Below the pieces are notes generated by a model. That model worked only from the letters and a program-made list of their open reading frames with translations. It was not told where the DNA came from and made no database searches. Positions 17,142 through 51,498 of a stretch of 64,000 nucleotides of DNA are shown here, piece after piece. Position 1 is the stretch's first letter; every line of letters starts with the position of its first letter. This DNA is from Chloroflexota bacterium (GTDB lineage Bacteria; Chloroflexota; Dormibacteria; Dormibacterales; Dormibacteraceae): the NCBI GenBank assembly GCA_005880795.1, contig VBGP01000022.1, forward strand, positions 17,347 through 81,346, given 5' to 3'. Position numbers and translations under genes: made by a program.

Positions 17142-17543
17142 TTGGGCTGGATCACCTTAGAAGTCCGCAGCCGGCGGCGCGCCGAGCTCGTCGACATCAC
17201 GGGACGCGTCGCCGAAGTGGTCGAGCGCTCAGGTGTGCGGGACGGGACCTGTCATGTCTTCGTCCCGCACACGACGGCCGGCGTGACGATCAACGAGGGC
17301 GCCGACCCTGATGTCGCGCGCGACATCGAGTCGCACCTTGGCGAGATGGTGCCCAAGGAGGCCGTCTTTCAGCATGCGGAGGGAAACTCCGACTCGCATA
17401 TCAAGACCGTGCTGATCGGGCCTTCGTGCGAAGCTCCGGTGCGCCAGGGCAAGCTGGCGCTTGGGCGGTGGCAGGCGATCTTCCTTTGCGAATGGGACGG
17501 GCCGCGGACGCGCCAGGTGGAGGTCGCCGTCTCCCCGGTCTAG
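17142..17543 (+). CDS. YjbQ family secondary thiamine-phosphate synthase-like protein
   Basis: Contains HTTAGVTINEGADPDV and NSDSHIKTVLIG. TTG start. Confidence 0.85.
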   Translation: MGWITLEVRSRRRAELVDITGRVAEVVERSGVRDGTCHVFVPHTTAGVTINEGADPDVARDIESHLGEMVPKEAVFQHAEGNSDSHIKTVLIGPSCEAPVRQGKLALGRWQAIFLCEWDGPRTRQVEVAVSPV

Positions 17544-17548
17544 TGCGC

Positions 17549-18235
17549 CTAGTTGACGATCTCGAGCGCGCGGGCGGTGACCACCGCGTTGACCATCGAC
17601 TTCGCTCCGAGCTTCGTGTTGATAGAACGTACATGCGTCCGCACCGTCGAGTAGCTGATGCCCAGCTGCTCAGCGATCTGTCGCGTGGAGGTCCCGTCGG
17701 CCATCAGCTGAAGGACATCCCGTTCACGGGGGCTCAGGCTGTCGCGCATATGCTCCCGGTCTTTGCCGCGGCTTACGAGGCCCGCGATCATCGACGGCGT
17801 GATCAGGCTGATTCCCTGTGCGACCTTGCGGACGGTGACGATGACCTCGGCGGCCGGGCTGGACTTGTGGAGGTACGCGCTGGCGCCGGCCTCGACCGCG
17901 GCGAGGCGGGCATCGTCACTTTCGTCGCGGCTCAGGAAGACGAACCTGACGTTGGGGAAAGTCGCTCGCATGGCCATGGCCGCGTCTCGACCGGTGCCGT
18001 CACCCAGGTGGTAATCCATTACCACCACGTCGGGCATCAAGGAGGCTGGCAGCTCGGAAGCCTCCGCCACAGAGCTCGCCTTGCCTACGACCTGCATGTC
18101 TTTCTGGCCGTCGAGGAGCAGGCCGAGACTCTCTGAGACGAGCTGATGGTTTTCAACGATGACGAGGCGGGTGAGACGTGCAATCCCAAGGACGCGGGTG
18201 CCGGGAAGCTGAGGGCGGGATTTGAGCTGGCTCAT
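17549..18235 (-). CDS. Response regulator, NarL/FixJ (LuxR HTH) family
   Basis: REC domain (LVIVENHQLV...DVVVMDYHLGDGTG) plus LuxR HTH (LSPRERDVLQLMADGTSTRQIAEQLGISYSTVRTHV). ATG at 18235; the track N-terminal extension is arginine/glycine junk. Confidence 0.9.
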   Translation of the reverse strand: MSQLKSRPQLPGTRVLGIARLTRLVIVENHQLVSESLGLLLDGQKDMQVVGKASSVAEASELPASLMPDVVVMDYHLGDGTGRDAAMAMRATFPNVRFVFLSRDESDDARLAAVEAGASAYLHKSSPAAEVIVTVRKVAQGISLITPSMIAGLVSRGKDREHMRDSLSPRERDVLQLMADGTSTRQIAEQLGISYSTVRTHVRSINTKLGAKSMVNAVVTARALEIVN

Positions 18236-18261
18236 CGGTGCGGTCGCTTGCGCCCAGCCCC

Positions 18262-18540
18262 TCAGGACAGCTCGGCCCGCCTGATCAGGTACCGGGCCTC
18301 CAGCTGCTGGACCACTGCCACGACAGTGTCTCGCTCCTCGACGTGCGCTATTCGAAGCCGCTCGCGGAACGTGCCAAGCCAGCCGCAGATCTCTTCCAGG
18401 CTGTCGATCCCCGGCACATAGGGCGCAAAAGATGGCAAAGGGGCCAGACCCTCCCTCCGGGCCGTGGCCCCCTGCCCCGTACGTGCCCCCCGGCGTGCTG
18501 ATTGGTTCCCGCTGCCCCTTGCAGCCATGCTGGCGCCCAC
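18262..18540 (-). CDS. Small hypothetical protein, short member of the local W..Y/F..L...RRD/RRAEL helical family (copy D)
   Basis: The C-terminal 55 aa (GIDSLEEICGWLGTFRERLRIAH...QQLEARYLIRRAELS) resemble the paralogs at 18603, 19139, 21962 and 26214. The true start is probably internal. Confidence 0.4.
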   Translation of the reverse strand: MGASMAARGSGNQSARRGARTGQGATARREGLAPLPSFAPYVPGIDSLEEICGWLGTFRERLRIAHVEERDTVVAVVQQLEARYLIRRAELS

Positions 18541-18602
18541 GATAGGCGGATAAGCGCAACATTCCGGGTCAAAATTCCTCCAGTAGGTGTAGATTCAGAG
18601 TC

Positions 18603-19142
18603 GTGGAGGCACCCGTGCTGCCTGCGACCGAGGACGCCTGGCGGGAGTTTCCTGGCGAGGATCTGACTACGTCCGCCCTGCCTGAGGTGGCGGGCTGGAT
18701 CTCGATCTACGAGGAGATGGCGTCGGTCCTGCGCTCAGTGATTGGGCGCGCGGATGGATCAAGCGAAGCCGAAGAGCTGCATCGCAACTTGAGCTGGATC
18801 GAGCAGCGCCTCGCCATCTGGCGCGACCGGCACGCCGAGCTGGCCGGGGTTGTCATCGACCACAAGAACCACACGCTCACTTACGCGGGGAAATCGCTGC
18901 CCCTCACCCGGCGAGAGGCGGACCTCCTGGACTTCCTGCTCCGCCATCCGCGGCGGCCATTCACCAGCAAGCAGCTGGCGACGCTGGCGTGGCAGAACTC
19001 GAGGCTGTCGGATGCGCAGGTTCGCACCTACATCATGCGATTGAGGAGCCGTTTGCGAGCGGTGGGCCTGGGAGAGGTCATCACCGTCGTCAGGAACCGC
19101 GGCTATGGCATCGCAAGTCTTGGCCGGGACGGCGAAGGATGA
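18603..19142 (+). CDS. Winged-helix (OmpR/PhoB Trans_reg_C type) DNA-binding protein with a novel N-terminal helical domain in place of a receiver (copy C)
   Basis: The C-terminus (LTRREADLLDFLLRHPRRPFTSKQL...VRTYIMRLRSRL...ITVVRNRGYGI) is a classical OmpR-type wHTH. The N-terminal roughly 85 aa lack REC motifs and match the local paralog family. Confidence 0.75.
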   Translation: MEAPVLPATEDAWREFPGEDLTTSALPEVAGWISIYEEMASVLRSVIGRADGSSEAEELHRNLSWIEQRLAIWRDRHAELAGVVIDHKNHTLTYAGKSLPLTRREADLLDFLLRHPRRPFTSKQLATLAWQNSRLSDAQVRTYIMRLRSRLRAVGLGEVITVVRNRGYGIASLGRDGEG

Positions 19143-19552
19143 CCGAAATCACGCCCGCCGCATCGATCGCTGAGACCCTGATTTCAGCGCGCCTGCTGAT
19201 GCTTCAGTCGAAGCGCCTCATCCTGGCCACCCTGGAGCGCCGAATGAGACAGCGGCCGCTTGACGAGCTTCGTGGCCGGGTTGAGGAAATGCGAATGGAG
19301 ACGGAGAGCGCTCAACACGGCTACTCAACGTCGATGTTGCGGTGGGGCTCGCCGGAGACTCCGGATTACTGGCCCGTGGCTTACAGGCGGCTGGTCGAGA
19401 TGGCCGAAAGGCTGTCGGCCAAGTTGCGCCGGTCGGCTCCTGACCTGCCTCCGGCGGAGAGATACCAGCTGGCCGCCGAGGTGGAGATGCTCGAGGTGCT
19501 CGTCGACGGCTGGCGCGACTCGATTCGAGCGTCGATGGCGTCCGTCGCCTAA
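19139..19552 (+). CDS. Hypothetical helical protein, divergent member of the same local family (copy E)
   Basis: ATG at 19139 overlaps the stop of the preceding gene (ATGA). Contains PDYWPVAYRRLVEMAERL...LEVLVDGWRDSI. Confidence 0.55.
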   Translation: MTEITPAASIAETLISARLLMLQSKRLILATLERRMRQRPLDELRGRVEEMRMETESAQHGYSTSMLRWGSPETPDYWPVAYRRLVEMAERLSAKLRRSAPDLPPAERYQLAAEVEMLEVLVDGWRDSIRASMASVA

Positions 19553-21369
19553 GGGTCCGAACCCTTCAGCTCCTCCATCACCAACACGACACCCGTCGGA
19601 AGGTCGCCGTCACCAAGGGTGTGCGCGATGACCCGGCAGCGGATCCGGCGGCCCCTTCTGGTCGTCGCGACGACGACGAGCTCGCGATGGCGCGGCGCTC
19701 CGCCGCTCCCGGCCTGAATCATGGCTTTCAACTGGTCCGCCGGAAGTCCGATATCGAGGTCGAAGAACGAGTTTCCCACCACCTCATCCGACCGCACGCC
19801 CCATAGGTCCGCCGCCCGCTCGTTCCACACCTGGACCTTGAATGCACCATCAAGGACCGCAGCCCCGACCTCGATGTTTCCCGTGATCGCGAGCAGCAAC
19901 GTGTTCAGCCGCTGCACCTCACCGGTCCGGAGGTTGAGGTCGGTGTTGATGCTCTCGAGCTCGGCGTTGGTCGATTCGAGCTCCTCGTTCAGCGTCTCCA
20001 GCTCCTCGTTCGTCGACTGAAGCTCCTCGTTGGTGGTTTCGAGCTCCTCCACGGTCGACTGGAGCTCCTCATTGGTGGTCTCGAGCTCCTCCTTACCCGA
20101 TTGCAGCTCCTGACTCAGGCGCTCAATATCTGAACGGAGGCGCGTCAGGTGGGTCACGTCAAAAAAGTTGACGGCGGTCCCGACCAGCGAGCCATCCTCG
20201 TCAACCAGGGGCGCGACGTGAACGTCAAAGATCCCCGTGGTCCCGTCGGCGTGCTTGAGCTCAACGCTCTGCATTGTTGCGGGTTGCCGGTCCCGGCTGA
20301 CCCGGTCGATCGGGGTCCGCAGGTCGATTGGTTTGTAAGAGAGCTGAAGGTCCTTGAGCGCGCGCCCGATGTCGGAAACCGGCACATCGAACGTGTCACG
20401 GGCCGGCTGGTTCGCGCTCACCAGGACCCCTGTGGCGTCGATGACGACCTGCGGGAACGGAGCTCCTTCCGTTGCCAGCTCTCGGACGCGCAGCTGACGG
20501 GCGACGTGGTTTGACGCCTCCGCGTTGCCCGACTGTGCGAGCAGCATCAAGCGTTCCCGTGGCTGGAGCTTCGCCACCTTGGTGAAAAGGCGTTCCTTCA
20601 ACTCAATGGGCGTGAACAGGGCCGTGTGCGTCAGCAGCATCTCCGCCCGGCCGAGAAAAAGATAGCCGTCATCGTTCAGCGCGTAATGAAACCGAGCCAG
20701 AATCCGTCCCTGCGCCTCCGCCGTGAAATAGATGAGGGTGTTTCGGCAGATCAAGAGGTCGAGCCGTGAGATGGGCGCGTCCTGCGTCAGGTCGTGCCGG
20801 CCGAAGATCATGGAGCGCCGCAGCGCGGAGCGAAAGACGAACCGCTCGCCCTGGTGATCGAAGTACCTTTCCTTGAGATCGTCGTGCAGCGACTCCAGCT
20901 CCTTGGCTGAGTAGCCGGCGCGGGCTTTGCTCAACGACTCCTCGTCGACGTCGGTGGCGTAGATCTTGACCCGGTCGAGGAAGGACGCTTCGCCGATGGC
21001 CTCACAGAAAAGCATCGCTGCGGAGAAGGCCTCCTCTCCCGACGACGTTCCTGCGCTCCAGACGCGGATATCGCCATCCCTGGCGACGATCCGCGGCACG
21101 AGGTGGTCACGCAGGTAATCCCATGCCGAGCTGTCCCGGAAGAACTCGGTCACGTTGATGAGGATCTTGTTGAAGAGGGTCACGAATTCATCGGGATGGA
21201 CTTCCAGGTAGTCGTGATACGCACGGAAGTTGTCGATCCCCAGCTCCGAGCACCGGTGAGCGACCCTGCGCATGAGGCTGGCCCTCTTGTAGCCGGTGAA
21301 GTCGAAGCCTCGAGAATCGCGCAGGAACTCGATCAGGCGCTCAAAATCGCTTCCCGCTTCGAGCGTCAA
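19549..21369 (-). CDS. CheR-type SAM-dependent methyltransferase with coiled coil and C-terminal PAS domain (CheB/CheR-fusion-family architecture, CheR half)
   Basis: Contains FDFTGYKRASLMRRV and RVWSAGTSSGEEAFS (CheR SAM motif). Heptad run EELETTNEELQSTVEELETTNEELQSTNEELETLNEELESTNAELE, then a PAS-like C-terminus. Confidence 0.9.
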   Translation of the reverse strand: MTLEAGSDFERLIEFLRDSRGFDFTGYKRASLMRRVAHRCSELGIDNFRAYHDYLEVHPDEFVTLFNKILINVTEFFRDSSAWDYLRDHLVPRIVARDGDIRVWSAGTSSGEEAFSAAMLFCEAIGEASFLDRVKIYATDVDEESLSKARAGYSAKELESLHDDLKERYFDHQGERFVFRSALRRSMIFGRHDLTQDAPISRLDLLICRNTLIYFTAEAQGRILARFHYALNDDGYLFLGRAEMLLTHTALFTPIELKERLFTKVAKLQPRERLMLLAQSGNAEASNHVARQLRVRELATEGAPFPQVVIDATGVLVSANQPARDTFDVPVSDIGRALKDLQLSYKPIDLRTPIDRVSRDRQPATMQSVELKHADGTTGIFDVHVAPLVDEDGSLVGTAVNFFDVTHLTRLRSDIERLSQELQSGKEELETTNEELQSTVEELETTNEELQSTNEELETLNEELESTNAELESINTDLNLRTGEVQRLNTLLLAITGNIEVGAAVLDGAFKVQVWNERAADLWGVRSDEVVGNSFFDLDIGLPADQLKAMIQAGSGGAPRHRELVVVATTRRGRRIRCRVIAHTLGDGDLPTGVVLVMEELKGSDP

Positions 21370-21965
21370 GTGAGCGCCTCAGCCGCGACGAGCGTTGCGA
21401 GCTTCGGCGCGATCTCGTCCAACGGCAGGATGAAGTCAACCGCGCCTGTTTTGATCGCCGCGGACGGCATTCCAAAAAATTCCGAAGTGGCTTCGTCCTG
21501 AGCCAGAACGGTGCCGCCTCGCTGCTTGATCGCGGTCACGCCCAGCGCTCCATCGTGGCCGCTACCGGTCAGTACGACCGCGATCGCACGTGGCCCGTAC
21601 GCGGCTGCCACGGATTCGAACATCAGGTCGGCGGAGGGTCTCACGAAGTTGACCAGCTCAGTGTCGGTGAGAGTTAGTGTGCCGCGTTTGACGAGGAGGT
21701 GGCGGTCGGGCGGTGCGAGGTAGATGTGGCCCCTCTCCAGCTGCGCTCCCTCTTCCGCATGGACCACCGGCAGCCGTGCATGGCGTCCGATCACCTGCGG
21801 CATCAGGCTTCGGTGGCGCGGATCGACGTGCTGCACGATGACGACGATCGCGCCGAGGGTTGCGGGTAGATGGCGGAGGACCTCGGTAAGGGCGCTGACG
21901 CCGCCGGCTGAGGCCGCGATGGCGATGATCTCGAAGGAGGTCGGCGATCCGCGAAACGGCTTCAG
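21366..21965 (-). CDS. CheB-type methylesterase catalytic domain protein (no receiver domain); start codon unresolved
   Basis: Contains IIAIAASAGGVSALTEVLRHLP...VVIVQHVDPRH...VVLTGSGHDG. The conserved N-terminal roughly 40 aa lie upstream of the first ATG (21836). No ATG, GTG or TTG exists in frame back to the stop at 22020-22022. The 5' end shown here is a CTG at 21965. Confidence 0.7.
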   Translation of the reverse strand: MKPFRGSPTSFEIIAIAASAGGVSALTEVLRHLPATLGAIVVIVQHVDPRHRSLMPQVIGRHARLPVVHAEEGAQLERGHIYLAPPDRHLLVKRGTLTLTDTELVNFVRPSADLMFESVAAAYGPRAIAVVLTGSGHDGALGVTAIKQRGGTVLAQDEATSEFFGMPSAAIKTGAVDFILPLDEIAPKLATLVAAEALT

Positions 21966-22348
21966 TCGGGGCCGCGGCTCCGGCCGCCCTTCATCTCGGC
22001 CGCCCGGATCTTCCAGAAATCACGCCGCAGCTCGAAACGCGAGGCCTGCGTCTCCAGAAGGACCACGTCGGTCTCGCGTATCGCTCGGGCCACCTCCGGC
22101 TCGGCGCGCTCGGCGTACTGGTGGGATAAATCGATCAGCTGGTGCTTGAAACGGATCAGCTCGTCGTACGTGGCGATCCAGCGGTGAGCCTGGTCCAGGG
22201 TGGCCGTAGCCGGGTTCTCCCCCTGGAGACGGTAGCCTGGATCGCCGAGTCGCTGGAGGAAGGCCGTCGTCATCTCACGCCGTTGCATTGTGCATTTTTC
22301 TTCCCATATCCCCATAACCGGATCGTCCAGATTTGTACCTGTCATCAT
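21962..22348 (-). CDS. Hypothetical helical protein of the local paralog family (copy A)
   Basis: Contains GENPATATLDQAHRWIATYDELIRFKHQL...ASRFELRRDFW, clearly similar to the ORF at 26214. The start is uncertain (M at 22348, 22315 or 22288). Confidence 0.6.
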   Translation of the reverse strand: MMTGTNLDDPVMGIWEEKCTMQRREMTTAFLQRLGDPGYRLQGENPATATLDQAHRWIATYDELIRFKHQLIDLSHQYAERAEPEVARAIRETDVVLLETQASRFELRRDFWKIRAAEMKGGRSRGPD

Positions 22349-22377
22349 GCTCTCGATCGGTTGGGAGGGGGCGAGCC

Positions 22378-23466
22378 ATGGGTCAGGATGTGAGGGCCGA
22401 GGTCGTGGGCAGCCTTCTGCGGCCAGACTTTTTGGTCGCGGCGCGCAAACGGCTCGAAGCGGGCGAGCTGGACCCTCCGCACTTCAAAGAGATCGAAGAC
22501 CGGGCCGTCGATGAGGCGATCGAGGTCCAGACCTCAGCCGGCATCGACGTGATCACCGACGGCGAGCAGCGCCGGTACGCGTTCTTCGGCCATCTCGTCG
22601 ATGCGATGGCGGGATTCGACAAATACGGCGGTTGGGCCATCCCGTTTCGCGACGAAAAGGGAGAGGAGCTCGTCTTCAAGCGACCGGTCGTCGTCGACAA
22701 GCTGAGGCCGCTGCGCAACATGGCCGCCGAGGAGTTCACCTACCTGCGGGCGAGCACCGGCGTGCCGGCGAAGGTGACGATGATCAGCGCCCAGCAGGCG
22801 GCGGCTTACTACGACCCCAACAAATCAAAAGGTGCGTACCCGACGCTTGACGCGTATCTCGCCGACGTGGTCGACCTGAGCCGGCGGGAGGTCGATGAGC
22901 TGATTCGCCTCGGATGCACCTACGTTCAGATCGACGCTCCCCAATACGCGGCGCTGCTCGACCCCGAGCTGCGCGAGGGATACCGAAAGCGCGGCAGCGA
23001 CCCGGAGACCTTGATCGATACATGCATCGAGATGGACAACGCGATCATCGCCGGCCACCCCGGCGTGACGTTCGCGATTCACATCTGCCGCGGCAACAAC
23101 CAGAGCAAGTTCTACGCGGCAGGCGACTATGGGCCGATCGCTCGAATCTTTGAAAGGACTGGTTTCAACCGGTTCCTCCTGGAGTACGACGACGAGCGCT
23201 CGGGTGGGTTCGAGCCGCTAAAGCATGTGCCGGAGGATCGGGTTGTCGTGCTTGGTCTGGTCACGAGCAAAAAGCCGGCGCTCGAGTCGGAAGAGGAGCT
23301 CAAGCGAAGGATCGTCGAAGCGGCGCGTTACTTGCCGCTGGATCGACTGGCAATCAGCCCTCAGTGCGGGTTCGCATCCACCATGGAGGGCAACCGGGTG
23401 ACCCGGGAGGACCAGCGCAAGAAGCTGGAGCTGGTCGGCAGCGTCGCGCGCTCGGTGTGGGGTTGA
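22378..23466 (+). CDS. Cobalamin-independent methionine synthase family protein (MetE C-terminal-like, Meth_synt_2)
   Basis: Contains VGSLLRP, DVITDGEQRR, IQIDAP, HICRGN and SPQCGF. ATG at 22378 preceded by GGGAGGGGG. Confidence 0.85.
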   Translation: MGQDVRAEVVGSLLRPDFLVAARKRLEAGELDPPHFKEIEDRAVDEAIEVQTSAGIDVITDGEQRRYAFFGHLVDAMAGFDKYGGWAIPFRDEKGEELVFKRPVVVDKLRPLRNMAAEEFTYLRASTGVPAKVTMISAQQAAAYYDPNKSKGAYPTLDAYLADVVDLSRREVDELIRLGCTYVQIDAPQYAALLDPELREGYRKRGSDPETLIDTCIEMDNAIIAGHPGVTFAIHICRGNNQSKFYAAGDYGPIARIFERTGFNRFLLEYDDERSGGFEPLKHVPEDRVVVLGLVTSKKPALESEEELKRRIVEAARYLPLDRLAISPQCGFASTMEGNRVTREDQRKKLELVGSVARSVWG

Positions 23467-23508
23467 ACGTTTGCGCCGGCCGGCGCCTCATGCTTAAGAT
23501 CGACAGAA

Positions 23509-24663
23509 GTGCTGCGGAAGTCGAATACGGCTGAGCCGAGGGATCTCGGCGATCAGTTCGCGCTCCTGGTCTCCAGTGTGGTCGATTACGGGATCTTCAT
23601 GCTTGATCCATCAGGTGTGGTCGTCACGTGGAACGAGGGCGCCCAGCGCATCAAGGGCTATGCAGCGACGGAGATCATCGGCCGGCACTTCTCGGTCTTC
23701 TACCCGGCGGAAGAAATCAGAAACCGCAAGCCCGACTGGGAGCTCGAGGTCGCCAGGCGCGAGGGCCGCTACGAAGAGGAAGGGTGGCGGATCCGCAAAG
23801 ACGGCACGCGCTTTTGGGCCAACGTGATCATCACCGCGCTCCGCGATGAGTCGGGCCGGCTGCGAGGCTTCGGCAAAGTGACGAGGGACCTCACTGAACC
23901 CCGGGCTCAGGAAATCCAGCGCAACCTGGACCGCGAGAAAGAGGCCCTGCAGCTTCGAGCGCATGCCGAGCGTATGGCGGAGCTGGAACGCACCAAGACG
24001 CATTTCCTCAACCTCGCGTCGCACGAACTGCGTGGACCCCTGACTGTGGTCCGTGGTTACAACTCGATGCTGGCCGACGGCTCGATCCCACCTGATCAGG
24101 TTCCCGCCGTATCGCGAATGCTGGAGATCAAACTGGCCCAGATGGAGCGGTTGATAGAGCAGATGCTCGACACGGCACGTCTCGAGGAGGAAAGCAACGA
24201 GCCGTCACGCGAGACGTTTGACCTGCGATTTGTCGCCCAGGAGCAGATCGACGTGTTCCGGCCGCTTTCGGGCGGTCATGTCCTCGTCCTGGATGGCGGT
24301 GACGGAAAGGTGCTGGTCAGCGGCGACCGGCTCCGGATAGCGATGATCGTCGCCAACCTCCTGGACAACGCGCTCAAGTACTCGCCGCAAGGGGGAGAGG
24401 TTCAATGCAGAGTCGGCGTGCGAGACGGACATGCCTTCATCAGCGTGCGCGACGTTGGGCTGGGCATTGCACCCGAGCACATATCGCGTCTGTTCATGCG
24501 GTTCGGTCGCCTGCCGACCGATGAGAACGTGACCATCCCGGGGACGGGCCTGGGCCTTTTCCTGTGCAAGGAGATCGCGGCCCGCCATGGCGGTGATATC
24601 ACCGTGGTTTCGGTCCCCGGCATGGGCAGCGAATTCACGCTGACTCTACCTTCGGCCGGATAG
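23509..24663 (+). CDS. Cytoplasmic PAS-domain sensor histidine kinase
   Basis: PAS domain (VVTWNEGAQRIKGYAATEIIGRHFSVFY), HisKA domain (FLNLASHELRGPLT) and HATPase_c domain (NLLDNALKYSP, GTGLGLFLCKEI). Confidence 0.9.
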   Translation: MLRKSNTAEPRDLGDQFALLVSSVVDYGIFMLDPSGVVVTWNEGAQRIKGYAATEIIGRHFSVFYPAEEIRNRKPDWELEVARREGRYEEEGWRIRKDGTRFWANVIITALRDESGRLRGFGKVTRDLTEPRAQEIQRNLDREKEALQLRAHAERMAELERTKTHFLNLASHELRGPLTVVRGYNSMLADGSIPPDQVPAVSRMLEIKLAQMERLIEQMLDTARLEEESNEPSRETFDLRFVAQEQIDVFRPLSGGHVLVLDGGDGKVLVSGDRLRIAMIVANLLDNALKYSPQGGEVQCRVGVRDGHAFISVRDVGLGIAPEHISRLFMRFGRLPTDENVTIPGTGLGLFLCKEIAARHGGDITVVSVPGMGSEFTLTLPSAG

Positions 24664-24671
24664 CCTTCCGC

Positions 24672-24845
24672 TTCACCTCCCCGCCCGCCGGGGAGGTCGG
24701 CCGCCGTGCGGCCGGGTGGGGAGTTGCGATTCACCTCCCCGCCCGCCGGGGAGGTCGGCCGCCGTCCGGCCGGGTGGGGGGTTGCGATTCACCTCCCCGC
24801 CCGCCGGGGAGGTCGGCCGGCGTCCGGCCGGGTGGGGGGTTGCGA
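24672..24845. repeat. Three tandem copies of a 58-bp GC-rich unit, each able to form two hairpins
   Basis: Units start at 24672, 24730 and 24788 (TTCACCTCCCCGCCCGCCGGGGAGGTCGGCCGCCGTNCGGCCGGGTGGGGNGTTGCGA). Stem 1 is CCTCCCCG/CGGGGAGG and stem 2 is CGGCCG/CGGCCG. Most differences between copies fall in the loop of stem 2. Confidence 0.9.
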
Positions 24846-24880
24846 GTCCCCTTGCCCGCATCATCAGAAGGTGCGAACAT

Positions 24881-26182
24881 TTGCTCGTTGTGAGCCAACC
24901 GTCGCCTGAAGCCATCGGGCTTGGCTTGAACACGGCCGACCCCACCACCCTCGTCATCGACCTCAACTGCGCCTTCGCCTCGATCGAGCAGCAGCAGGAC
25001 GCGGCACTTCGCGGCCGCCCGGTCGCGATCGCCGCCTACGCCACCGACGCCGCAACCATCGTCTCGTCGTCGCGCGAAGCGCGAGACCTCGGCATCAAGA
25101 CCGGCATGCGCGTTTTCGAGGCCAAAGCCATCTTCCCGGCCGTCATCGTCCGCGAGCCCGACCCGCCCCTCTACCGCTCCGTCTCGGACAAGCTCATGGA
25201 GATCATCGAGCGACACACGCCCGATGTGCGTCGAATGTCCATCGACGAGGCCTCGCTCAACCTGGCCGGCACGCCGGACTTGAAAAGGCTCGGCCCCGAA
25301 GGCGTTGGGCGCGTGGTCAAAGCGGCGATTCGTGAGGAGATCGGAGAGTGCGTGACCGCGTCGGTGGGCGTCTCGACCTCGATCTGGATGGCCAAGCAGG
25401 CGTCGAACGTGGACAAGCGCGACGGCCTGCAGCGGATCGACCACACCAACCTGGTATCGGTCTTCGAGCGGCTGCAGCTCACCGACCTGTCGGGGATCGC
25501 CGAGGCCACCGCGAGCCGGCTTGCCCGCGCCGGCATCCTCTCGCCCGTTCAGTTCCTGCGGGCGACCCCGCCGCGACTGCGCCTGGCCGGCATGCACTCC
25601 GAGGTCGCGCGCGGGTGGAGCATGCGCCTCCGCGGGTTCGAGGTCGGCGGTTTCGAGACCACCAAACGGAAGAGCTACAGCCATTCGCACGTGCTCGCTC
25701 GCGCCACCGCTTCGCAGGGCGAGCTGGAAGAGCTCCTGATGCGCCTGTCGGACATGGTCGGCCGGCGGCTGCGGGCCGCCGCGAGGCGGGGCCGCGTGGT
25801 CTCGGTGGGCGTCGTCTACCGGCCGGACGCGGGCCACTTCTCCAAGCAGGCGAAGCAGCCCAAACCGATCTCGACCGGGGACGAGATATACCTGGCGGCC
25901 CTGACGCTGCTCGCTGCTCGTGACCCCCGGCGGACCATCGGCACGCTCGGAGTGGGCCTCTCCGACCTGGTCGACGGCGCCGGGGGCCAGCTCGACCTTT
26001 TCGCCCAGGCTGTGCTCCCCCGAAAGGAGCGGCTCGAGGCGGCGGTCGACGCGCTGCGGGATCGGTTTGGCGAAGACGCCGTCCAGCGCTCGCGGCTCCT
26101 CGGCCGCGCTCCAGTGGTGCGCGACCGCATCGCGTTTGGTAATACCGGACATCCTGATGAGTCGAGGCCGAATAAGTCGTGA
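24881..26182 (+). CDS. dinB: Y-family DNA polymerase (DinB/Pol IV-like)
   Basis: Contains VIDLNCAFASIEQQQDAALRGRPVAIA and MSIDEASLNL (catalytic acidic motifs). TTG at 24881 lies 9 nt after AGAAGG. The track ORF start at 24716 lies inside the tandem repeat. Confidence 0.85.
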   Translation: MLVVSQPSPEAIGLGLNTADPTTLVIDLNCAFASIEQQQDAALRGRPVAIAAYATDAATIVSSSREARDLGIKTGMRVFEAKAIFPAVIVREPDPPLYRSVSDKLMEIIERHTPDVRRMSIDEASLNLAGTPDLKRLGPEGVGRVVKAAIREEIGECVTASVGVSTSIWMAKQASNVDKRDGLQRIDHTNLVSVFERLQLTDLSGIAEATASRLARAGILSPVQFLRATPPRLRLAGMHSEVARGWSMRLRGFEVGGFETTKRKSYSHSHVLARATASQGELEELLMRLSDMVGRRLRAAARRGRVVSVGVVYRPDAGHFSKQAKQPKPISTGDEIYLAALTLLAARDPRRTIGTLGVGLSDLVDGAGGQLDLFAQAVLPRKERLEAAVDALRDRFGEDAVQRSRLLGRAPVVRDRIAFGNTGHPDESRPNKS

Positions 26183-26213
26183 CTTCCCGCCTGATAAAGA
26201 ACAAGATGAACGC

Positions 26214-26525
26214 ATGGCCTCCAGGAAAGAGGAGGCCGCCGGAGCGGCCTGGGAGGGCGCCGACCTCGATCGACCGATTCTCGGAGAGAACCCCGAATCG
26301 GAGTCGCTGGAGGACGCCCGCCGCTGGGTGACCGTCTACAGCTACTTGGTCAAGCTCGAGGAAGAGCTGCTCGACATGCTCGCCGGCGCCATCCCGCAGA
26401 TGCCGGACGCGGCCCAGCGGGAAGCTGAGCAGACCAACCTGCCGGTGTTGGCCTCGCAGGTCGAGCGCTTCCGGCACCGGCGGGACTACTGGGCCCACCG
26501 CCGGACCGAGCTGGAGGGGCGCTAG
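26214..26525 (+). CDS. Hypothetical helical protein of the local paralog family (copy B)
   Basis: Contains GENPESESLEDARRWVTVYSYLVKLEEEL...QVERFRHRRDYW. Lies 31 nt downstream of dinB. Its 3' end overlaps the 3' end of the convergent hybrid kinase by 4 nt. Confidence 0.6.
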   Translation: MASRKEEAAGAAWEGADLDRPILGENPESESLEDARRWVTVYSYLVKLEEELLDMLAGAIPQMPDAAQREAEQTNLPVLASQVERFRHRRDYWAHRRTELEGR

Positions 26526-28684
26526 CCGGCTGCTCGCGCCCCGGGGGTGGTCTTGAGGACGATCCCCCTGAGCCACTCGATGAGCTCAGCGCCCGCGACT
26601 GAGTTGCGCTGGAAGATCGCTGCGACGTTGCCGTTCAGGGAACGTTTGTCATCAGCTGTGAGCGTTTTGGCGGTGAGGACCATGATCGGGATGGTTCGCG
26701 TCCGATCTTCGGCCCGGAGCTGCTCCACGACCTCAAAGCCGCTGACCCCTGGCATCATCAGGTCGAGGAGGATGAGATTTGGCAGGCGCGACTTTGCCAT
26801 GTCGATTCCTTCCTGTCCGCCGTTCGCCCGCAGCACGCTGAAGCCGGCGGGCTTGAGCAAGCCTTCGATCAGGTCGAGGTTTGACTGCTCGTCGTCGACC
26901 ACCAGCACCCGGACCTCTTCGCGCTTCACCTTCGTAGTGAACGTGAACTGCTCGAGGCGTGACAGCAAGCCCCTTCCATCGATTGGCTTGACGAAGTAGT
27001 CGATCGCACCAAGCGCCCGGCCGAGCGCCGGATTGTCGACCACCGAGACCACGACCACCGGGATGTTGCGCGTGGACTCGTCCTGCTTGAGCCGCGTCAG
27101 CACCTCCCAACCATCGATCTCGGGCAGGAGTATGTCCAGCGTCACGGCGACCGGCTTTAGCTCTCTGGCCATCCTCAGCGCGTCAGTGCCGTTGCGTGCG
27201 ATTTCCATTCGGAACCCACCCACCTCGAGATGCCGGCCAAGGATCTCGGCCGCCTGCGGGTTGTCCTCGACCACGAGGACGAGCGGACGGCCCGCCTCGA
27301 CCTGTCGGGCTTTTTCGGGCTTGCGAGCCGGCCATTCTTGGGGGGCCACGCTGTGCGCCGGCAATCGGACCGTGAAGGTCGTCCCCTTCCCAACCTGGCT
27401 TTCGACGCTGACGTCGCCACCGTGCAGAACGGCAAGGCGCTTCGTCAACGCCAGGCCGAGACCGGTGCCTTCCTGTCGGCGCCCCGGCCCGGGGTCGAGC
27501 TGTTGAAACTCACCGAAAAGACGAGGGAGATCCGCTTCCGCGATCCCGATCCCTGTGTCGATCACCGCTATTTCCACCGAGCTCGCCGTCCGGCGCGCGC
27601 GGATGGACACGTGGCCGCCGGCCGGCGTGAATTTGATGGCGTTCGAGGCGAGGTTCAGCAGCATCTGCCTCACCTTTGCGCCATCTGCGACAAGCTGCAT
27701 GCTGGGATCCGACTCGCTGTCGAAGGTGATCCCCTTGGCTCGTGCCAGCGGCTCCATGGTGGCTAAAACCTCACGCACGGTGTCGGCCACCAACATAAGT
27801 TGCGGATGAAGCTCCATCTGCCCCGCCTCGACCTTCGAGAGGTCAAGGATGTCATTGATGAGCTGCAGCAGGTGCTTGCCGCTGCTGTGAATCTGGTCGA
27901 GAAAACGGCGACGAGTCACGGGGTCAAAACGTTCTGACCCTTCGTCGCTGAGAAGCTCCGAAAACCCGATGATCGCGTTCAGCGGCGTTCGTAGCTCGTG
28001 GCTCATGCTCGCCAGGAAGCGGCTTTTCGCGCGGTTGGCTCGCTCGGCCTCGGCCTGCGCGTCGCTCAGCTGCTTTGTTCGCTCCTCCACCATGGCTTCC
28101 AGCTCGCTGGCGAGCAGCCTCTGATTGCGCAGTAGCTGCGCGGTGGCGATCGCGCGCGCGGCGCGTTCCGCCAGGCTGACCAAAAGGTCGAGGTCAGCCT
28201 GGTTGAAGGGCGTGCTTCCCTCCATCCGGTTGAGGTTCAGCCCACCCACGACGGTGTCCTGGGCGATCATCGGGATCAAAGCCGATTGACGCATCCGCCA
28301 CTTCTCGATGTGGCGTCTCTGGTGCGGCGCAAGGTCGGGCCGCAGGTGATCCGGATCGATTTCGATCACAACCGGTCGCCGCTCCTGGATAACGGATTTC
28401 CAGACCCCGGACGCGTCGATGTCCATCCGGACACCCAGCATGTGACGCGCGTCTTCCATGACGTTGGGGTCGGGATGATAGGCGGCCACGGGCTCGACGC
28501 TCCGGCCATCAGCCGAGAGGAGGACGACGGCGCAGAAGTCACCGGTCGCGCGGGAGATCTGCTCGGCGACGATTGCCAGGAGGGCTTCGATGTCCGGGAC
28601 GGCGTCGCTGAACGCGCCGGTCGCCTCGGCGATTGCGGCGAGGCGGCCGGCATGACCGCCGCCCAGGGCAGGGAGGTCAGACAT
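26522..28684 (-). CDS. Hybrid sensor histidine kinase (GAF - HisKA - HATPase_c - REC - REC)
   Basis: Contains SHELRTPLNAIIGFSELL, GTGLGLALTKRL and two receiver domains (LVLVVEDNPQ...TLDILLPEIDG and VLVVDDEQSN...LLDLMMPGVSG). Confidence 0.92.
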   Translation of the reverse strand: MSDLPALGGGHAGRLAAIAEATGAFSDAVPDIEALLAIVAEQISRATGDFCAVVLLSADGRSVEPVAAYHPDPNVMEDARHMLGVRMDIDASGVWKSVIQERRPVVIEIDPDHLRPDLAPHQRRHIEKWRMRQSALIPMIAQDTVVGGLNLNRMEGSTPFNQADLDLLVSLAERAARAIATAQLLRNQRLLASELEAMVEERTKQLSDAQAEAERANRAKSRFLASMSHELRTPLNAIIGFSELLSDEGSERFDPVTRRRFLDQIHSSGKHLLQLINDILDLSKVEAGQMELHPQLMLVADTVREVLATMEPLARAKGITFDSESDPSMQLVADGAKVRQMLLNLASNAIKFTPAGGHVSIRARRTASSVEIAVIDTGIGIAEADLPRLFGEFQQLDPGPGRRQEGTGLGLALTKRLAVLHGGDVSVESQVGKGTTFTVRLPAHSVAPQEWPARKPEKARQVEAGRPLVLVVEDNPQAAEILGRHLEVGGFRMEIARNGTDALRMARELKPVAVTLDILLPEIDGWEVLTRLKQDESTRNIPVVVVSVVDNPALGRALGAIDYFVKPIDGRGLLSRLEQFTFTTKVKREEVRVLVVDDEQSNLDLIEGLLKPAGFSVLRANGGQEGIDMAKSRLPNLILLDLMMPGVSGFEVVEQLRAEDRTRTIPIMVLTAKTLTADDKRSLNGNVAAIFQRNSVAGAELIEWLRGIVLKTTPGARAAG

Positions 28685-28723: not shown

Positions 28724-30160
28724 TTAACGAGCGCCCCGCCGGTGCCTGGCTGGAGCTCCTAAGGCCTCCACAGCCGCCACGGCCGCGAGATCGTCGATTG
28801 CGGCCATGAAAGCAAGGCTGCCGTGGTTCCCCCCAGAGCTGGCGTGGGCGATCTCGTGCAGTACCACGCGGGCGAAATGTCGCGGCGAATCGAGCACGGA
28901 CCGTTTGACCACGATGTTCGGCGAGTCCCAAACCCCTTCGGTCTCGTATGCGCCCTCGTCAAGTCGCATCGTGGCCGAGATGCGCACCTCCTTGACGCGC
29001 TTCGCGTGCGCGCCGGCGAGCCGGATCAGCTCGGGCAAGATCGCCCATGCGATCCGTTCCGTCTTGTTCAGCTTTGCCAGATCGACGAAGTTGTAGGTGA
29101 ACGAGGCATTCCAGACCTGGACGAAGCCGGAGATGTCGAGGATTGGACGGCCTTCGAGGTCGCGCAGCTTGGAAAGCCGTCCCAGCAATCGGTCGGGCAC
29201 CACGATGACCTTGTAGCCGTCGGCCCTCGCCTCTTGAATCGTCGAGCCCATCGTGAACATCTGCTGTGAGCTGACGAAGACTGTCTTGCCTCTCGTGGCG
29301 AGGATCCTGACGGCCTGCTCCTGCACGTCGAGCCAGGTGATCTCGTCGTGGTTGGTGCCGAGCGGGATCCGTGTGAGGTCCTGCACCAGCTGCTCCGCGA
29401 CGGCCTCGGATTTGGCCTTCAGGAGGATCGCCTTGACTCGGTCCTGGTAGGCGCTCCGCCCCACGTTGCTGCGTTCACGGTTGAGCGCTCGCTGGAGCTG
29501 CGTGGTGGTCGATGTGACGTTGTAGGAGAACAGGAACTGATCCTCGAGCGCGACACGGACGCCCTTCACATAGATGCGCGCAGGCTGGTCAGGACGGCGT
29601 TCGAGGATGCTGCCGAGCTCCGTCCGCTCGAGCTCCTTGTCGCCCGCAAAGCGCAAGAAGTAATCCCGCGCGGCAGCCATGTCGGCGTCGGACAGGCCGC
29701 CCAGTGTGAAGTCGGTGCCGCGCCGCTTCGGTTCGGAAGCCGGCGTGATCGCCGCGTGAAGCGTCTTGACATCGGCGAAGTTGGTCTTCGCGGCTTGCTG
29801 CAACCTGATGTCGCCATGCGGACTGCGGATGCGCACCTCAACGCCGCGACGGTGAAATGTCGCCAGCGCGTCCTTGAGGCCGACGCCGAACTTGCCGACC
29901 ACGAGGTCGGAGCGACGCCTCTTCTCGGGATTCTCGTTCTGGGTGAGGTGCTGGTAGTGCAGGCCGCGCCCGAAATCTGTGATGTGCCATCCGTCGCGGC
30001 GCTTCACGATCTGCGGCTCGGCGCTGCCGCTCAGCGCCTGCTCATCGAGCGCGTTCGCGATCACCTCGCGTACGGCCTCAGGCACGCCCCAGTGGTCGAG
30101 GATCTTTTCGACGTTGAGGTCGAAAAGAGAAACCTGGCCCTTTGTTACTCGGCGAGCCAC
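28724..30160 (-). CDS. GHKL (HATPase_c_3/MutL-Hsp90-MORC type) ATPase fused to a C-terminal HExxH zincin-like domain
   Basis: Bergerat motifs are EAVREVIANALDE (ExxxNAxD), ITDFGRGL (DxGxG) and GKFGVGLKDA (GxxGxG). The C-terminus has VVLHEIAHASSGGNHGSLAF, resembling the HExxH...NH..F signature of SprT/YgjP(DUF45)-type metallopeptidases. GTG at 30158-30160 overlaps the upstream gene by 16 nt. The track extension to 30370 is not supported. Confidence 0.75.
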   Translation of the reverse strand: MARRVTKGQVSLFDLNVEKILDHWGVPEAVREVIANALDEQALSGSAEPQIVKRRDGWHITDFGRGLHYQHLTQNENPEKRRRSDLVVGKFGVGLKDALATFHRRGVEVRIRSPHGDIRLQQAAKTNFADVKTLHAAITPASEPKRRGTDFTLGGLSDADMAAARDYFLRFAGDKELERTELGSILERRPDQPARIYVKGVRVALEDQFLFSYNVTSTTTQLQRALNRERSNVGRSAYQDRVKAILLKAKSEAVAEQLVQDLTRIPLGTNHDEITWLDVQEQAVRILATRGKTVFVSSQQMFTMGSTIQEARADGYKVIVVPDRLLGRLSKLRDLEGRPILDISGFVQVWNASFTYNFVDLAKLNKTERIAWAILPELIRLAGAHAKRVKEVRISATMRLDEGAYETEGVWDSPNIVVKRSVLDSPRHFARVVLHEIAHASSGGNHGSLAFMAAIDDLAAVAAVEALGAPARHRRGAR

Positions 30161-30552
30161 TCCCTCGCCTCTTCGACCGAGGCGAAGTACGCGATCTGCA
30201 TCGCCGTTTGCGGCACCTTGTCGAGACGCTCGCGAAGATGACCCGCCGCGATCTCGCTTTCGGGCAGCACAATCGCGAACCGCTTCAGGCCCGCCTCGAG
30301 CACCCGTGGGACCCACTCGCGGTTCGCCCGCTCCTGGTCTGCCGGGTTCAGGATCCGCTGGCGGCGACAATCGGCCAGGAGGCGCGAGCAGGCACGCTCC
30401 CCGAGCGCCTTGACCTCGGCGTCGAGAAGAGCGCCGAATTCAGCGCTGTTGGCCCATCCGTCCCACTCCACGAAGACAGTCGAGTGGGGACCGTCCCACC
30501 TGACTGTTGCGACACCCGGGACCGAGAAGTAGACGTCGTCATCCTCGCCCAT
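30145..30552 (-). CDS. STAS/SEC14 (SpoIIAA-like, DUF3478-type) domain protein
   Basis: 135 aa. Pattern VRWDG...FVEWDGW...LLADCR...RFAIVLPES...IAYFASVEEAREWL matches the SpoIIAA-like family, ending with the typical A..WL. Confidence 0.6.
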   Translation of the reverse strand: MGEDDDVYFSVPGVATVRWDGPHSTVFVEWDGWANSAEFGALLDAEVKALGERACSRLLADCRRQRILNPADQERANREWVPRVLEAGLKRFAIVLPESEIAAGHLRERLDKVPQTAMQIAYFASVEEAREWLAE

Positions 30553-51397: not shown

Positions 51398-51431
51398 GTG
51401 GTGGGCCGGGAGGAGTGGTGGGCCGGGAGGG
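51398..51431. repeat. Tandem 17-bp duplication of the tRNA-Tyr 3' end
   Basis: GTGGTGGGCCGGGAGGA (51398-51414) is immediately followed by GTGGTGGGCCGGGAGGG (51415-51431). The second copy is the acceptor/T-stem 3' strand of the tRNA. Confidence 0.85.
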
Positions 51432-51498
51432 ATTTGAACCCCCACAGCTTTCGCGGGTGGTTTACAGCCACTTGAGCTCGCCAATGCCCAGCCGACCC
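51416..51498 (-). tRNA. tRNA-Tyr: tRNA-Tyr (anticodon GTA), class II with long variable arm, CCA encoded
   Basis: Hand fold: acceptor GGGTCGG/CCGGCCC, D stem GGGC/GCTC, anticodon loop CTGTAAA, 12-nt variable arm, T arm GGGGG-TTCAAAT-CCCTC, discriminator A, then CCA. There is one A:C mismatch at the top of the anticodon stem. Confidence 0.85.

Follow-up and report, generated by a model that had tools for sequence, protein, structure and literature searches.

Contig VBGP01000022.1 of the Chloroflexota bacterium assembly GCA_005880795.1 (family Dormibacteraceae) was analyzed over a stretch of 64,000 nucleotides (nt), positions 17,347 to 81,346 of the forward strand, which is referred to here as the window and which contains several small genes encoding a recurrent helical domain. 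This domain, which is about 85-95 residues in length and was given the working name X, constitutes by sequence comparison a large domain family that was previously undescribed and is absent from the protein-family databases searched. Homology, conservation, the predicted fold of one copy, domain architectures, gene coupling, and adjacency to histidine kinase genes are documented below, and from these we infer pairing, docking, and a regulatory effect: X is taken, with slightly more confidence than doubt, to be a protein-protein association or docking module of two-component-type signaling.

The first-pass annotation of the window, which was made from the DNA letters and a list of open reading frames (ORFs), had described five paralogous copies (A to E) of an unrecognized domain, and the peptides that it quoted and all five ORFs were found where it had placed them. 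The ORF that it gave for copy A (21962-22348) exists, but the start of the gene is most likely at 22288, as in most orthologs. The five copies are as follows.

18262 to 18540, minus strand: copy D, 92 amino acids (aa), with a possible shortened X hairpin in its C-terminal part (about 18265-18414).
18603 to 19142, plus strand: copy C, 179 aa, with the X domain at about 18648-18848 and an OmpR-type winged helix at about 18888-19106.
19139 to 19552, plus strand: copy E, 137 aa, with a divergent X domain in its C-terminal half (about 19346-19525).
21962 to 22288, minus strand: copy A, 108 aa, with the X domain at about 21986-22255; first gene of the A-CheB-CheR(PAS) operon.
26214 to 26525, plus strand: copy B, 103 aa, a stand-alone X protein (E-value of 1e-31 with the family hidden Markov model, HMM).

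Judged by their codon composition and substitution pattern, all five copies are conserved, protein-coding genes. Each of them displays GC1 > GC2 << GC3, which is the coding pattern of this genome (the G+C content of the window is about 65%), and alignment to orthologous DNA from 4-14 related loci revealed an excess of third-codon-position substitutions in every copy. The gene order of the A, C, D, and E orthologs is the same in more than 10 contigs of related Dormibacterota-type metagenome-assembled genomes (MAGs), and the public gene calls on a related 474-kb contig include separate genes of 108, 175, 94, and 139 aa for A, C, D, and E, respectively. The coding pattern, the substitution excess, and the preserved gene order thus identify A to E as genes of the expressed type rather than chance ORFs. 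Copy A has 71 database relatives, mostly of 108 aa, copy B has 194 homologs at E≤1e-3, and the orthologs of copy D share 63-88% identity across 10 non-redundant loci.

Homology among the copies was assessed using BLASTP, HMM searches of the 930 six-frame ORFs of the window, and profile-profile alignment with hhalign. BLASTP matched A with B (3e-16), A with C (1e-4), and B with C (2e-3), the remaining pairs of A to E being not significant. With an HMM built from A and B orthologs only, C ranked third at 5.7e-5 and the E ORF fourth at 0.15. An HMM built from 148 diverse representatives recovered B (1e-31), A (2e-29), C (3.4e-10, over the full domain), and E (3e-3), and no fifth ORF, D included, scored with this model anywhere in the 64-kb window. 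Alignment of C orthologs with the family using hhalign gave 98% (E-value 1.8e-13) and placed a deletion of 14 columns at the tip of the hairpin; that of E orthologs gave 95.5% (E-value 1.6e-8) over 60 columns that span both helices. The E orthologs from other loci matched the family HMM (best 1.7e-7) and, in the reverse direction, an HMM of E matched family proteins (best 3.7e-9). For D, hhalign gave 6.7% against the family and 9% against C, a weak result with P of 0.004-0.005; the alignments sit in the expected register (LEEICGWLGTFRE opposite LPEVAGWISIYEE, and RRAEL opposite RHAEL), and the alignment score exceeds those of all 150 column-shuffled controls. At E<10, an HMM of D produced weak matches to 229 of 413 real family proteins, versus 35 reversed and 47 shuffled decoys. 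The signature residues are all present in A and B; G-E-D, W-x3-Y, and W-R-D-R are kept in C, W-x3-Y and W-R-D are kept in E, and D has W-x3-F and R-R-A-E-L. By these comparisons A and B are clear paralogs, C is a full-length family member, and E is a divergent family member that is supported in both search directions. The earlier count of five paralogous copies, for which an HMM-HMM comparison had been proposed as the check, therefore stands for A, B, C, and E (98% for C and 95.5% for E) and is unproven for D, which was missed by the family HMM and reached 6.7-9% with hhalign.

To determine the extent of the family, 1.84 billion representative proteins were searched with a profile, and this returned 862 clusters (50% identity) at E≤1e-3 and 312 at ≤1e-10. 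Most of the X family proteins are stand-alone and 95-130 aa in length, and the source names of the matches are all "hypothetical protein", with no Pfam domain. When Pfam-A, NCBIfam, PADLOC, and PHROGs were searched with the five window copies, the X domain matched no family, and a Pfam search of 108 members yielded no consistent match, merely scattered sub-threshold coiled-coil noise. Two family profiles (A1 and A3) were compared with the PDB sequences at E≤10 and found nothing relevant, and Foldseek searches of PDB and viral structures with a model of copy A returned generic coiled-coil hairpins alone, with every E-value above 0.1; the hantavirus N coiled coil and the SerRS arm are examples. 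The domain is thus as unrecognized as the first-pass annotation had supposed. A tblastn search of plasmid and phage collections with the family consensus produced no match and hence no sign of a mobile-element origin, and literature searches on Dormibacterota regulators and on receiver-less OmpR proteins with a helical hairpin returned nothing relevant. Two weak genome matches, one from Thermaceae (L020) and one from Lachnospiraceae (L021), were rejected as X members by the family HMM. The Joint Genome Institute name "cob(I)alamin adenosyltransferase", which is attached to the copy A orthologs P0022 and P0037, had no Pfam or NCBIfam support and was probably carried over in error from a family of helical bundles.

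The family signature, derived from 148 sequences, reads D-P-x-R-L-L-x-G-E-[DN]-P, then D-A-x-x-W-x-x-V-Y-x-E-L-x3-K, then E-x4-[DN], then [EQ]-x2-R-x3-R-x3-W-x2-R-x3-L. Its near-invariant columns are G24, E25, P27, W38, Y42, L45, R85, R89, W93, and R96, of which E25, Y42, W38, and W93 are essentially invariant, and the motif that had been read from the window copies by eye agrees with these columns. Copy A was modeled with AlphaFold2 using a 22-sequence alignment (predicted local distance difference test, pLDDT, of 85.4), and the model contains an extended N-terminal segment, in which G-E-x-P is modeled with confidence, followed by antiparallel helices at residues 31-61 and 64-100. As predicted for copy A, X folds into an extended conserved cap and, after it, a long hairpin of two antiparallel helices. 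At the hairpin base, helix 1 contributes the invariant W-x3-Y-x2-L and helix 2 the invariant R-x3-R-x3-W-x2-R, so placed that conserved residues lie opposite one another across this open end, and the length of the tip varies. The hydrophobic face of helix 1 is wide, occupying about 4 of 7 positions, which suggests burial on more than one side.

X occurs as a stand-alone protein, as tandem X-X, as an N-terminal fusion to a winged helix-turn-helix (X-wHTH), and as REC-X. Of the top 150 representative clusters, the ten longest were examined for their architecture, and X together with Trans_reg_C, as in copy C, accounted for five, tandem X-X for two (both halves significant, at 3e-29 and 5e-18), and X located C-terminal to REC for one (P0272). 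Similar combinations are formed by neighboring genes. In locus L104 (1010-1992), a single-domain REC gene and an X-wHTH gene overlap by 13 nt in a split-regulator arrangement, and in locus L101 (4572-5591) a stand-alone X gene is followed, after 132 nt, by an X-wHTH gene, with kdpA/kdpB coming shortly downstream.

In the window, the fusion is represented by copy C, which together with copies D and E surrounds a short divergent intergenic region. The features next to these copies are given here.

17549 to 18238, minus strand: LuxR/NarL-type response regulator (REC + GerE; Response_reg 4e-16, GerE 5.5e-20), downstream of D.
18541 to 18602, no strand assigned: intergenic region of 62 nt between the divergent operons of D with the response regulator and of C with E; candidate promoter/operator.

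Trans_reg_C (PF00486) was detected at residues 96-168 of C (E-value 1.2e-14), and residues 75-170 align to the PhoB and CreB models of NCBIfam. Residues 1-85 are the X domain, and the Pfam search of C gave no Response_reg match. The suggestion that C carries the domain in the receiver position of an OmpR-type regulator was accordingly borne out, and the same X-wHTH arrangement recurs in the five long representatives mentioned above. The stop codon of C and the start codon of E overlap by 4 nt (ATGA), and this overlap is kept in loci L001 and L028. On the opposite strand, the distance from the stop of D to the ATG of the response regulator is 23 nt in the window and 1-23 nt across the window and its relatives. 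When the 62-nt region was aligned over 10 loci, conserved blocks emerged, namely CGCAACATT..GGTCAAAAT and GTGTAGATTCAG. The hexamer TAGATT is found about 7 nt before the GTG of C, a position suggestive of a transcript with a short leader or none and of a candidate operator site, and a promoter/terminator scan returned nothing useful in this high-GC region.

Copy A is joined to chemotaxis-type genes on the minus strand and has, on its other side and across a MetE-like gene, a histidine kinase gene.

21366 to 21965, minus strand: CheB methylesterase, receiver-less, about 199 aa with a revised CTG start (CheB_methylest 4e-51).
19549 to 21369, minus strand: CheR methyltransferase with a coiled coil and two PAS domains (CheR 1e-48, CheR_N, PAS), the start of which overlaps the CheB stop.
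23509 to 24663, plus strand: PAS-HisKA-HATPase histidine kinase, assigned with Pfam.

The mechanically called CheB ORF (21366-21836) loses the catalytic-Ser motif, and the 43 aa encoded upstream (21837-21965) are conserved. This in-frame upstream sequence, which includes the motif IIAIAASAGG, is 76% identical to the full-length CheB of locus L025. No ATG, GTG, or TTG precedes the Ser motif in the window or in six related loci; in all of these, a conserved CTG overlaps the TGA stop of A (CTGA), and in more distant relatives a GTG in another frame overlaps the end of A. The overlap of the A stop with a CTG or GTG start of CheB argues that translation of the two genes is coupled; this CheB, like copy C, is without the receiver that is usual at the N-terminus. 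Fusion of A and CheB by a programmed frameshift was weighed as an alternative and rejected, since no slippery heptamer was seen in the 57-nt overlap and the overlapping GTG of the relatives is in a different frame, and coupling is the simpler explanation. The CheB of L001 is also too short in the public gene calls (146 aa). Residues of about 407-480 of the CheR-PAS protein form a heptad run of the EELxxTNEEL type between the PAS domains, which by eye resembles Glu-rich chemoreceptor methylation segments; no gene for a methyl-accepting chemotaxis protein was noticed in the region examined. The MetE-like gene that separates A from the PAS kinase in the window is located at 22333-23466. In relatives, the PAS kinase is the direct divergent neighbor of A, at 300 nt or less in 8 of the 21 A-cluster members (163 nt in L009).

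Copy B lies between a DNA polymerase gene and a second kinase gene.

24716 to 26182, plus strand: DinB/Y-family polymerase (IMS 7.6e-35, IMS_C 1e-18), upstream of B.
26522 to 28684, minus strand: hybrid histidine kinase GAF-HisKA-HATPase-REC-REC, assigned with Pfam, convergent with B, with overlapping stops.

The B gene starts 31 nt downstream of DinB, and the DinB-X pair, at a spacing of about 31 nt, was found in at least five distinct loci, among them L022, L025/26, L028, and L029. The DinB orthologs are 413-434 aa in length, and the true start of the DinB gene in the window is probably near 24890, since the N-terminus of the ORF crosses tandem repeats. These repeats (24666-24852) comprise a 58-nt unit present three times in tandem, 90-100% identical, between the genes for the PAS kinase and DinB; the unit is absent elsewhere in the window, and each copy of it holds the palindrome ACCTCCCCGCCCGCCGGGGAGGT. 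Beyond the hybrid kinase, an ORF of 548 aa on the minus strand (28724-30370) displays GHKL-ATPase-like motifs by eye (NALDE, GxGL) and has no Pfam match at E≤1e-3. The sole Rfam match in the window is a tRNA at 51419-51498 on the minus strand, far from the copies.

Gene neighborhoods were also examined outside the window. A motif-based scan of metagenome contigs supplied 71 further loci, and their neighboring genes were annotated with Pfam in about a dozen distinct arrangements. A histidine kinase directly adjoins X in most of these arrangements and is often a short protein of 233-299 aa that consists of HisKA and HATPase without a sensor domain; some of the loci also hold OmpR-type regulators or stand-alone HisKA-only genes. 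For a count of kinase neighbors, X domains were clustered at 70% identity, kinase ORFs were identified with an HMM of the HisKA+HATPase core, and control genes were taken from the same sequences at a distance of at least 2.5 kb from any X. A kinase ORF was present within 300 nt in 10 of the 25 assessable X clusters versus 2 of the 104 control genes (Fisher P 7e-7), a difference of about 20-fold that was obtained on motif-selected metagenome contigs with crude gene calls and with clusters that are phylogenetically non-independent. The link of X to signaling is thus supported statistically, in agreement with the adjacency to signaling genes that the first-pass annotation had described. Stand-alone, DHp-only HisKA genes of 93-97 aa were observed beside short kinases (233-250 aa) and X genes in L045 (5141-5434) and L074 (5131-5412), and this arrangement of a DHp-only HisKA gene, a short sensor-less kinase, and X recurs in dozens of metagenome contigs.

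In the mechanism that we favor, X hairpins would pair with one another (X:X) into four-helix bundles and/or dock on kinase or receiver partners. The tandem fusions and the X/X-wHTH gene pairs point to X:X pairing, probably as four-helix bundles, and such pairing is further argued by the presence of two independent arrangements of a stand-alone X gene with an X-wHTH gene (C followed by E, with E as the stand-alone X, and L101). The associations with REC and with kinases suggest that it is through pairing or docking that outputs are linked to two-component partners. Applied to the window, copy C, a receiver-less DNA-binding protein of the OmpR type, would pair or be regulated through its X domain, copy E would act as its coupled partner or modulator, and a C:E complex would control the divergent promoters of the D-response regulator and C-E operons from the 62-nt region. 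Copy A would be a co-translated regulatory subunit of the receiver-less CheB and of CheR-PAS, in an A:CheB(:CheR-PAS) complex. Copy D precedes the LuxR-type response regulator, and copy B lies between DinB and the hybrid kinase.

Several observations weigh against an association module of this kind. The link with signaling genes extends beyond the window through kinase adjacency, but the conserved neighbor of B is DinB, which is non-signaling. Copy D is a plausible, shortened member whose membership is unproven. Many of the conserved charged residues may merely stabilize the hairpin and form no binding site. The tandem protein P0195, taken as a way to see how hairpins pack on one another, was modeled with AlphaFold2 from its single sequence at low confidence (pLDDT 61; predicted template modeling score, pTM, 0.47), and the fold matches of this low-confidence model are uninformative. 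The composition of the kinase count, as qualified above, belongs here as well, and the adjacent kinases are mostly convergent or divergent to X and not co-operonic. Finally, several members have no kinase near them and lie beside metabolic or DNA-repair genes, including a UvrD/PD-(D/E)XK helicase, Macro with glycosyltransferases, and a carboxyltransferase.

A more specific proposal is that X provides receiver-replacing control, in which outputs (the wHTH of C and the CheB coupled to A) would be switched by direct, stoichiometric pairing, the partners being kinases, REC-X proteins, or free X paralogs, and not by phosphorylation of an Asp of the output itself. The winged helix of C (Trans_reg_C) matches PhoB, CreB, and MtrA over their C-terminal half, as in OmpR/PhoB regulators, but C differs from these in lacking the receiver and the phospho-acceptor Asp and in having the X hairpin instead, so that C falls outside the strict definition of a response regulator. 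The partner binding and the substitution for phosphorylation control that the first-pass annotation suggested from copy C are likewise conjectural. X also co-occurs with receivers, both in REC-X P0272 and beside the REC gene of L104, and thus does not simply replace REC. Receiver-replacing control is regarded as doubtful, with perhaps a minority chance of being correct; if true, it would represent a distinct, lineage-expanded wiring logic of two-component systems in Dormibacterota.

Known helical hairpins of phosphorelay signaling, which are functionally the closest analogs of X, supply the next explanation. DHp (HisKA) and the Spo0E-family and CheZ phosphatases belong to phosphorelay signaling and are helical hairpins that assemble in pairs as four-helix bundles. 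X resembles them in being a helical hairpin, and DHp-only genes adjoin X in L045 and L074; it differs in that it has no H-box, no HisKA match (five copies and 108 members), no SQELD, no D-x3-Q, and no PDB profile match. By this explanation X would be a dedicated two-component inhibitor or phosphatase, either Sda-like, binding DHp, or Spo0E/CheZ-like, dephosphorylating receivers, which we consider rather unlikely. It would fit a small helical hairpin with strong kinase adjacency, above all to short sensor-less kinases, and with acidic or amide side chains conserved on helix 2 (E70, D/N75, and E/Q82). Sda, the sporulation kinase inhibitor of Bacillus subtilis, offers a precedent as a small cytosolic helical hairpin that docks on the DHp of KinA/KinB (PMC10730256). 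Sda and X are both helical hairpins, and X is tied to histidine kinases by gene neighborhood, but the two have no sequence or profile similarity and no Foldseek PDB match at E≤1e-3 connects them. X is twice as long, with a G-E-x-P cap and a W/Y/R signature, it also occurs in tandem, wHTH-fused, and REC-fused forms, and it comes from Dormibacterota-type soil bacteria and not from Firmicutes. The family profiles match no PDB chain, in a set where Sda, Spo0E, and CheZ are represented, Foldseek yields generic hairpins alone, and SQELD and D-x3-Q are absent from the family consensus. A pure anti-kinase role would, moreover, leave tandem X-X, X-wHTH, and the coupling with CheB and DinB unexplained.

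It is improbable that X is a lineage-specific structural coiled coil of no particular role in signaling, with signaling neighbors through inherited synteny in one phylum and through the high density of such genes. The fold is generic, the A to E cluster represents conserved synteny among related MAGs, and unrelated genes lie beside some members, all of which this explanation would accommodate. It is opposed by the kinase adjacency, which occurs in many arrangements and orientations at about 20-fold over the same-contig controls, by the existence of fusions to wHTH and REC, by the start/stop overlaps with the CheB, E, and REC genes, and by a polar signature that is strongly conserved, unlike that of a plain coiled coil. 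Binding of nucleic acid or a small ligand through an Arg/Trp face, with B for example as a DinB accessory protein, would draw on the invariant R85, R89, R96, W38, W93, and Y42 on one face, the DinB-B pair kept at about 31 nt, and the UvrD/PD-(D/E)XK helicase-nuclease that adjoins one member, but it is very improbable given that the conserved residues face one another across the hairpin and may have a structural role only, that kinases and regulators rather than nucleic-acid enzymes form most contexts, and that copy C already has a dedicated DNA-binding domain.

The association or docking module remains the preferred explanation. X was also compared with one further domain of receiver proteins. 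HalX (PF08663) is a helical output domain that is fused to receivers in haloarchaea. The likeness is that of a short helical domain C-terminal to REC, as in REC-X P0272; the difference is that copy E reaches an E-value of 0.21 with HalX (12.4 bits versus a threshold of 23.2) and that HalX is absent among the matches of the 108 members. As X showed none of the defining sequence features of Sda, Spo0E, CheZ, DHp, or HalX in these comparisons, it was filed as a new domain family in a known kind of system.

Two-component signaling is usually described by a closed set of domains, namely HisKA, HATPase, REC, Hpt, and output domains, and X adds to this repertoire a large unannotated family of about 860 clusters at 50% identity. 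To our knowledge, regulation in this uncultured soil phylum is essentially unknown. The family should be relevant to specialists in bacterial signaling and to family databases, and the C-E, A-CheB, and X-kinase pairs are small soluble proteins that are directly testable. Should X prove to be a module for pairing or docking, it would provide a new family model for annotation pipelines and would account for the control of receiver-less regulators and sensor-less kinases in these genomes.

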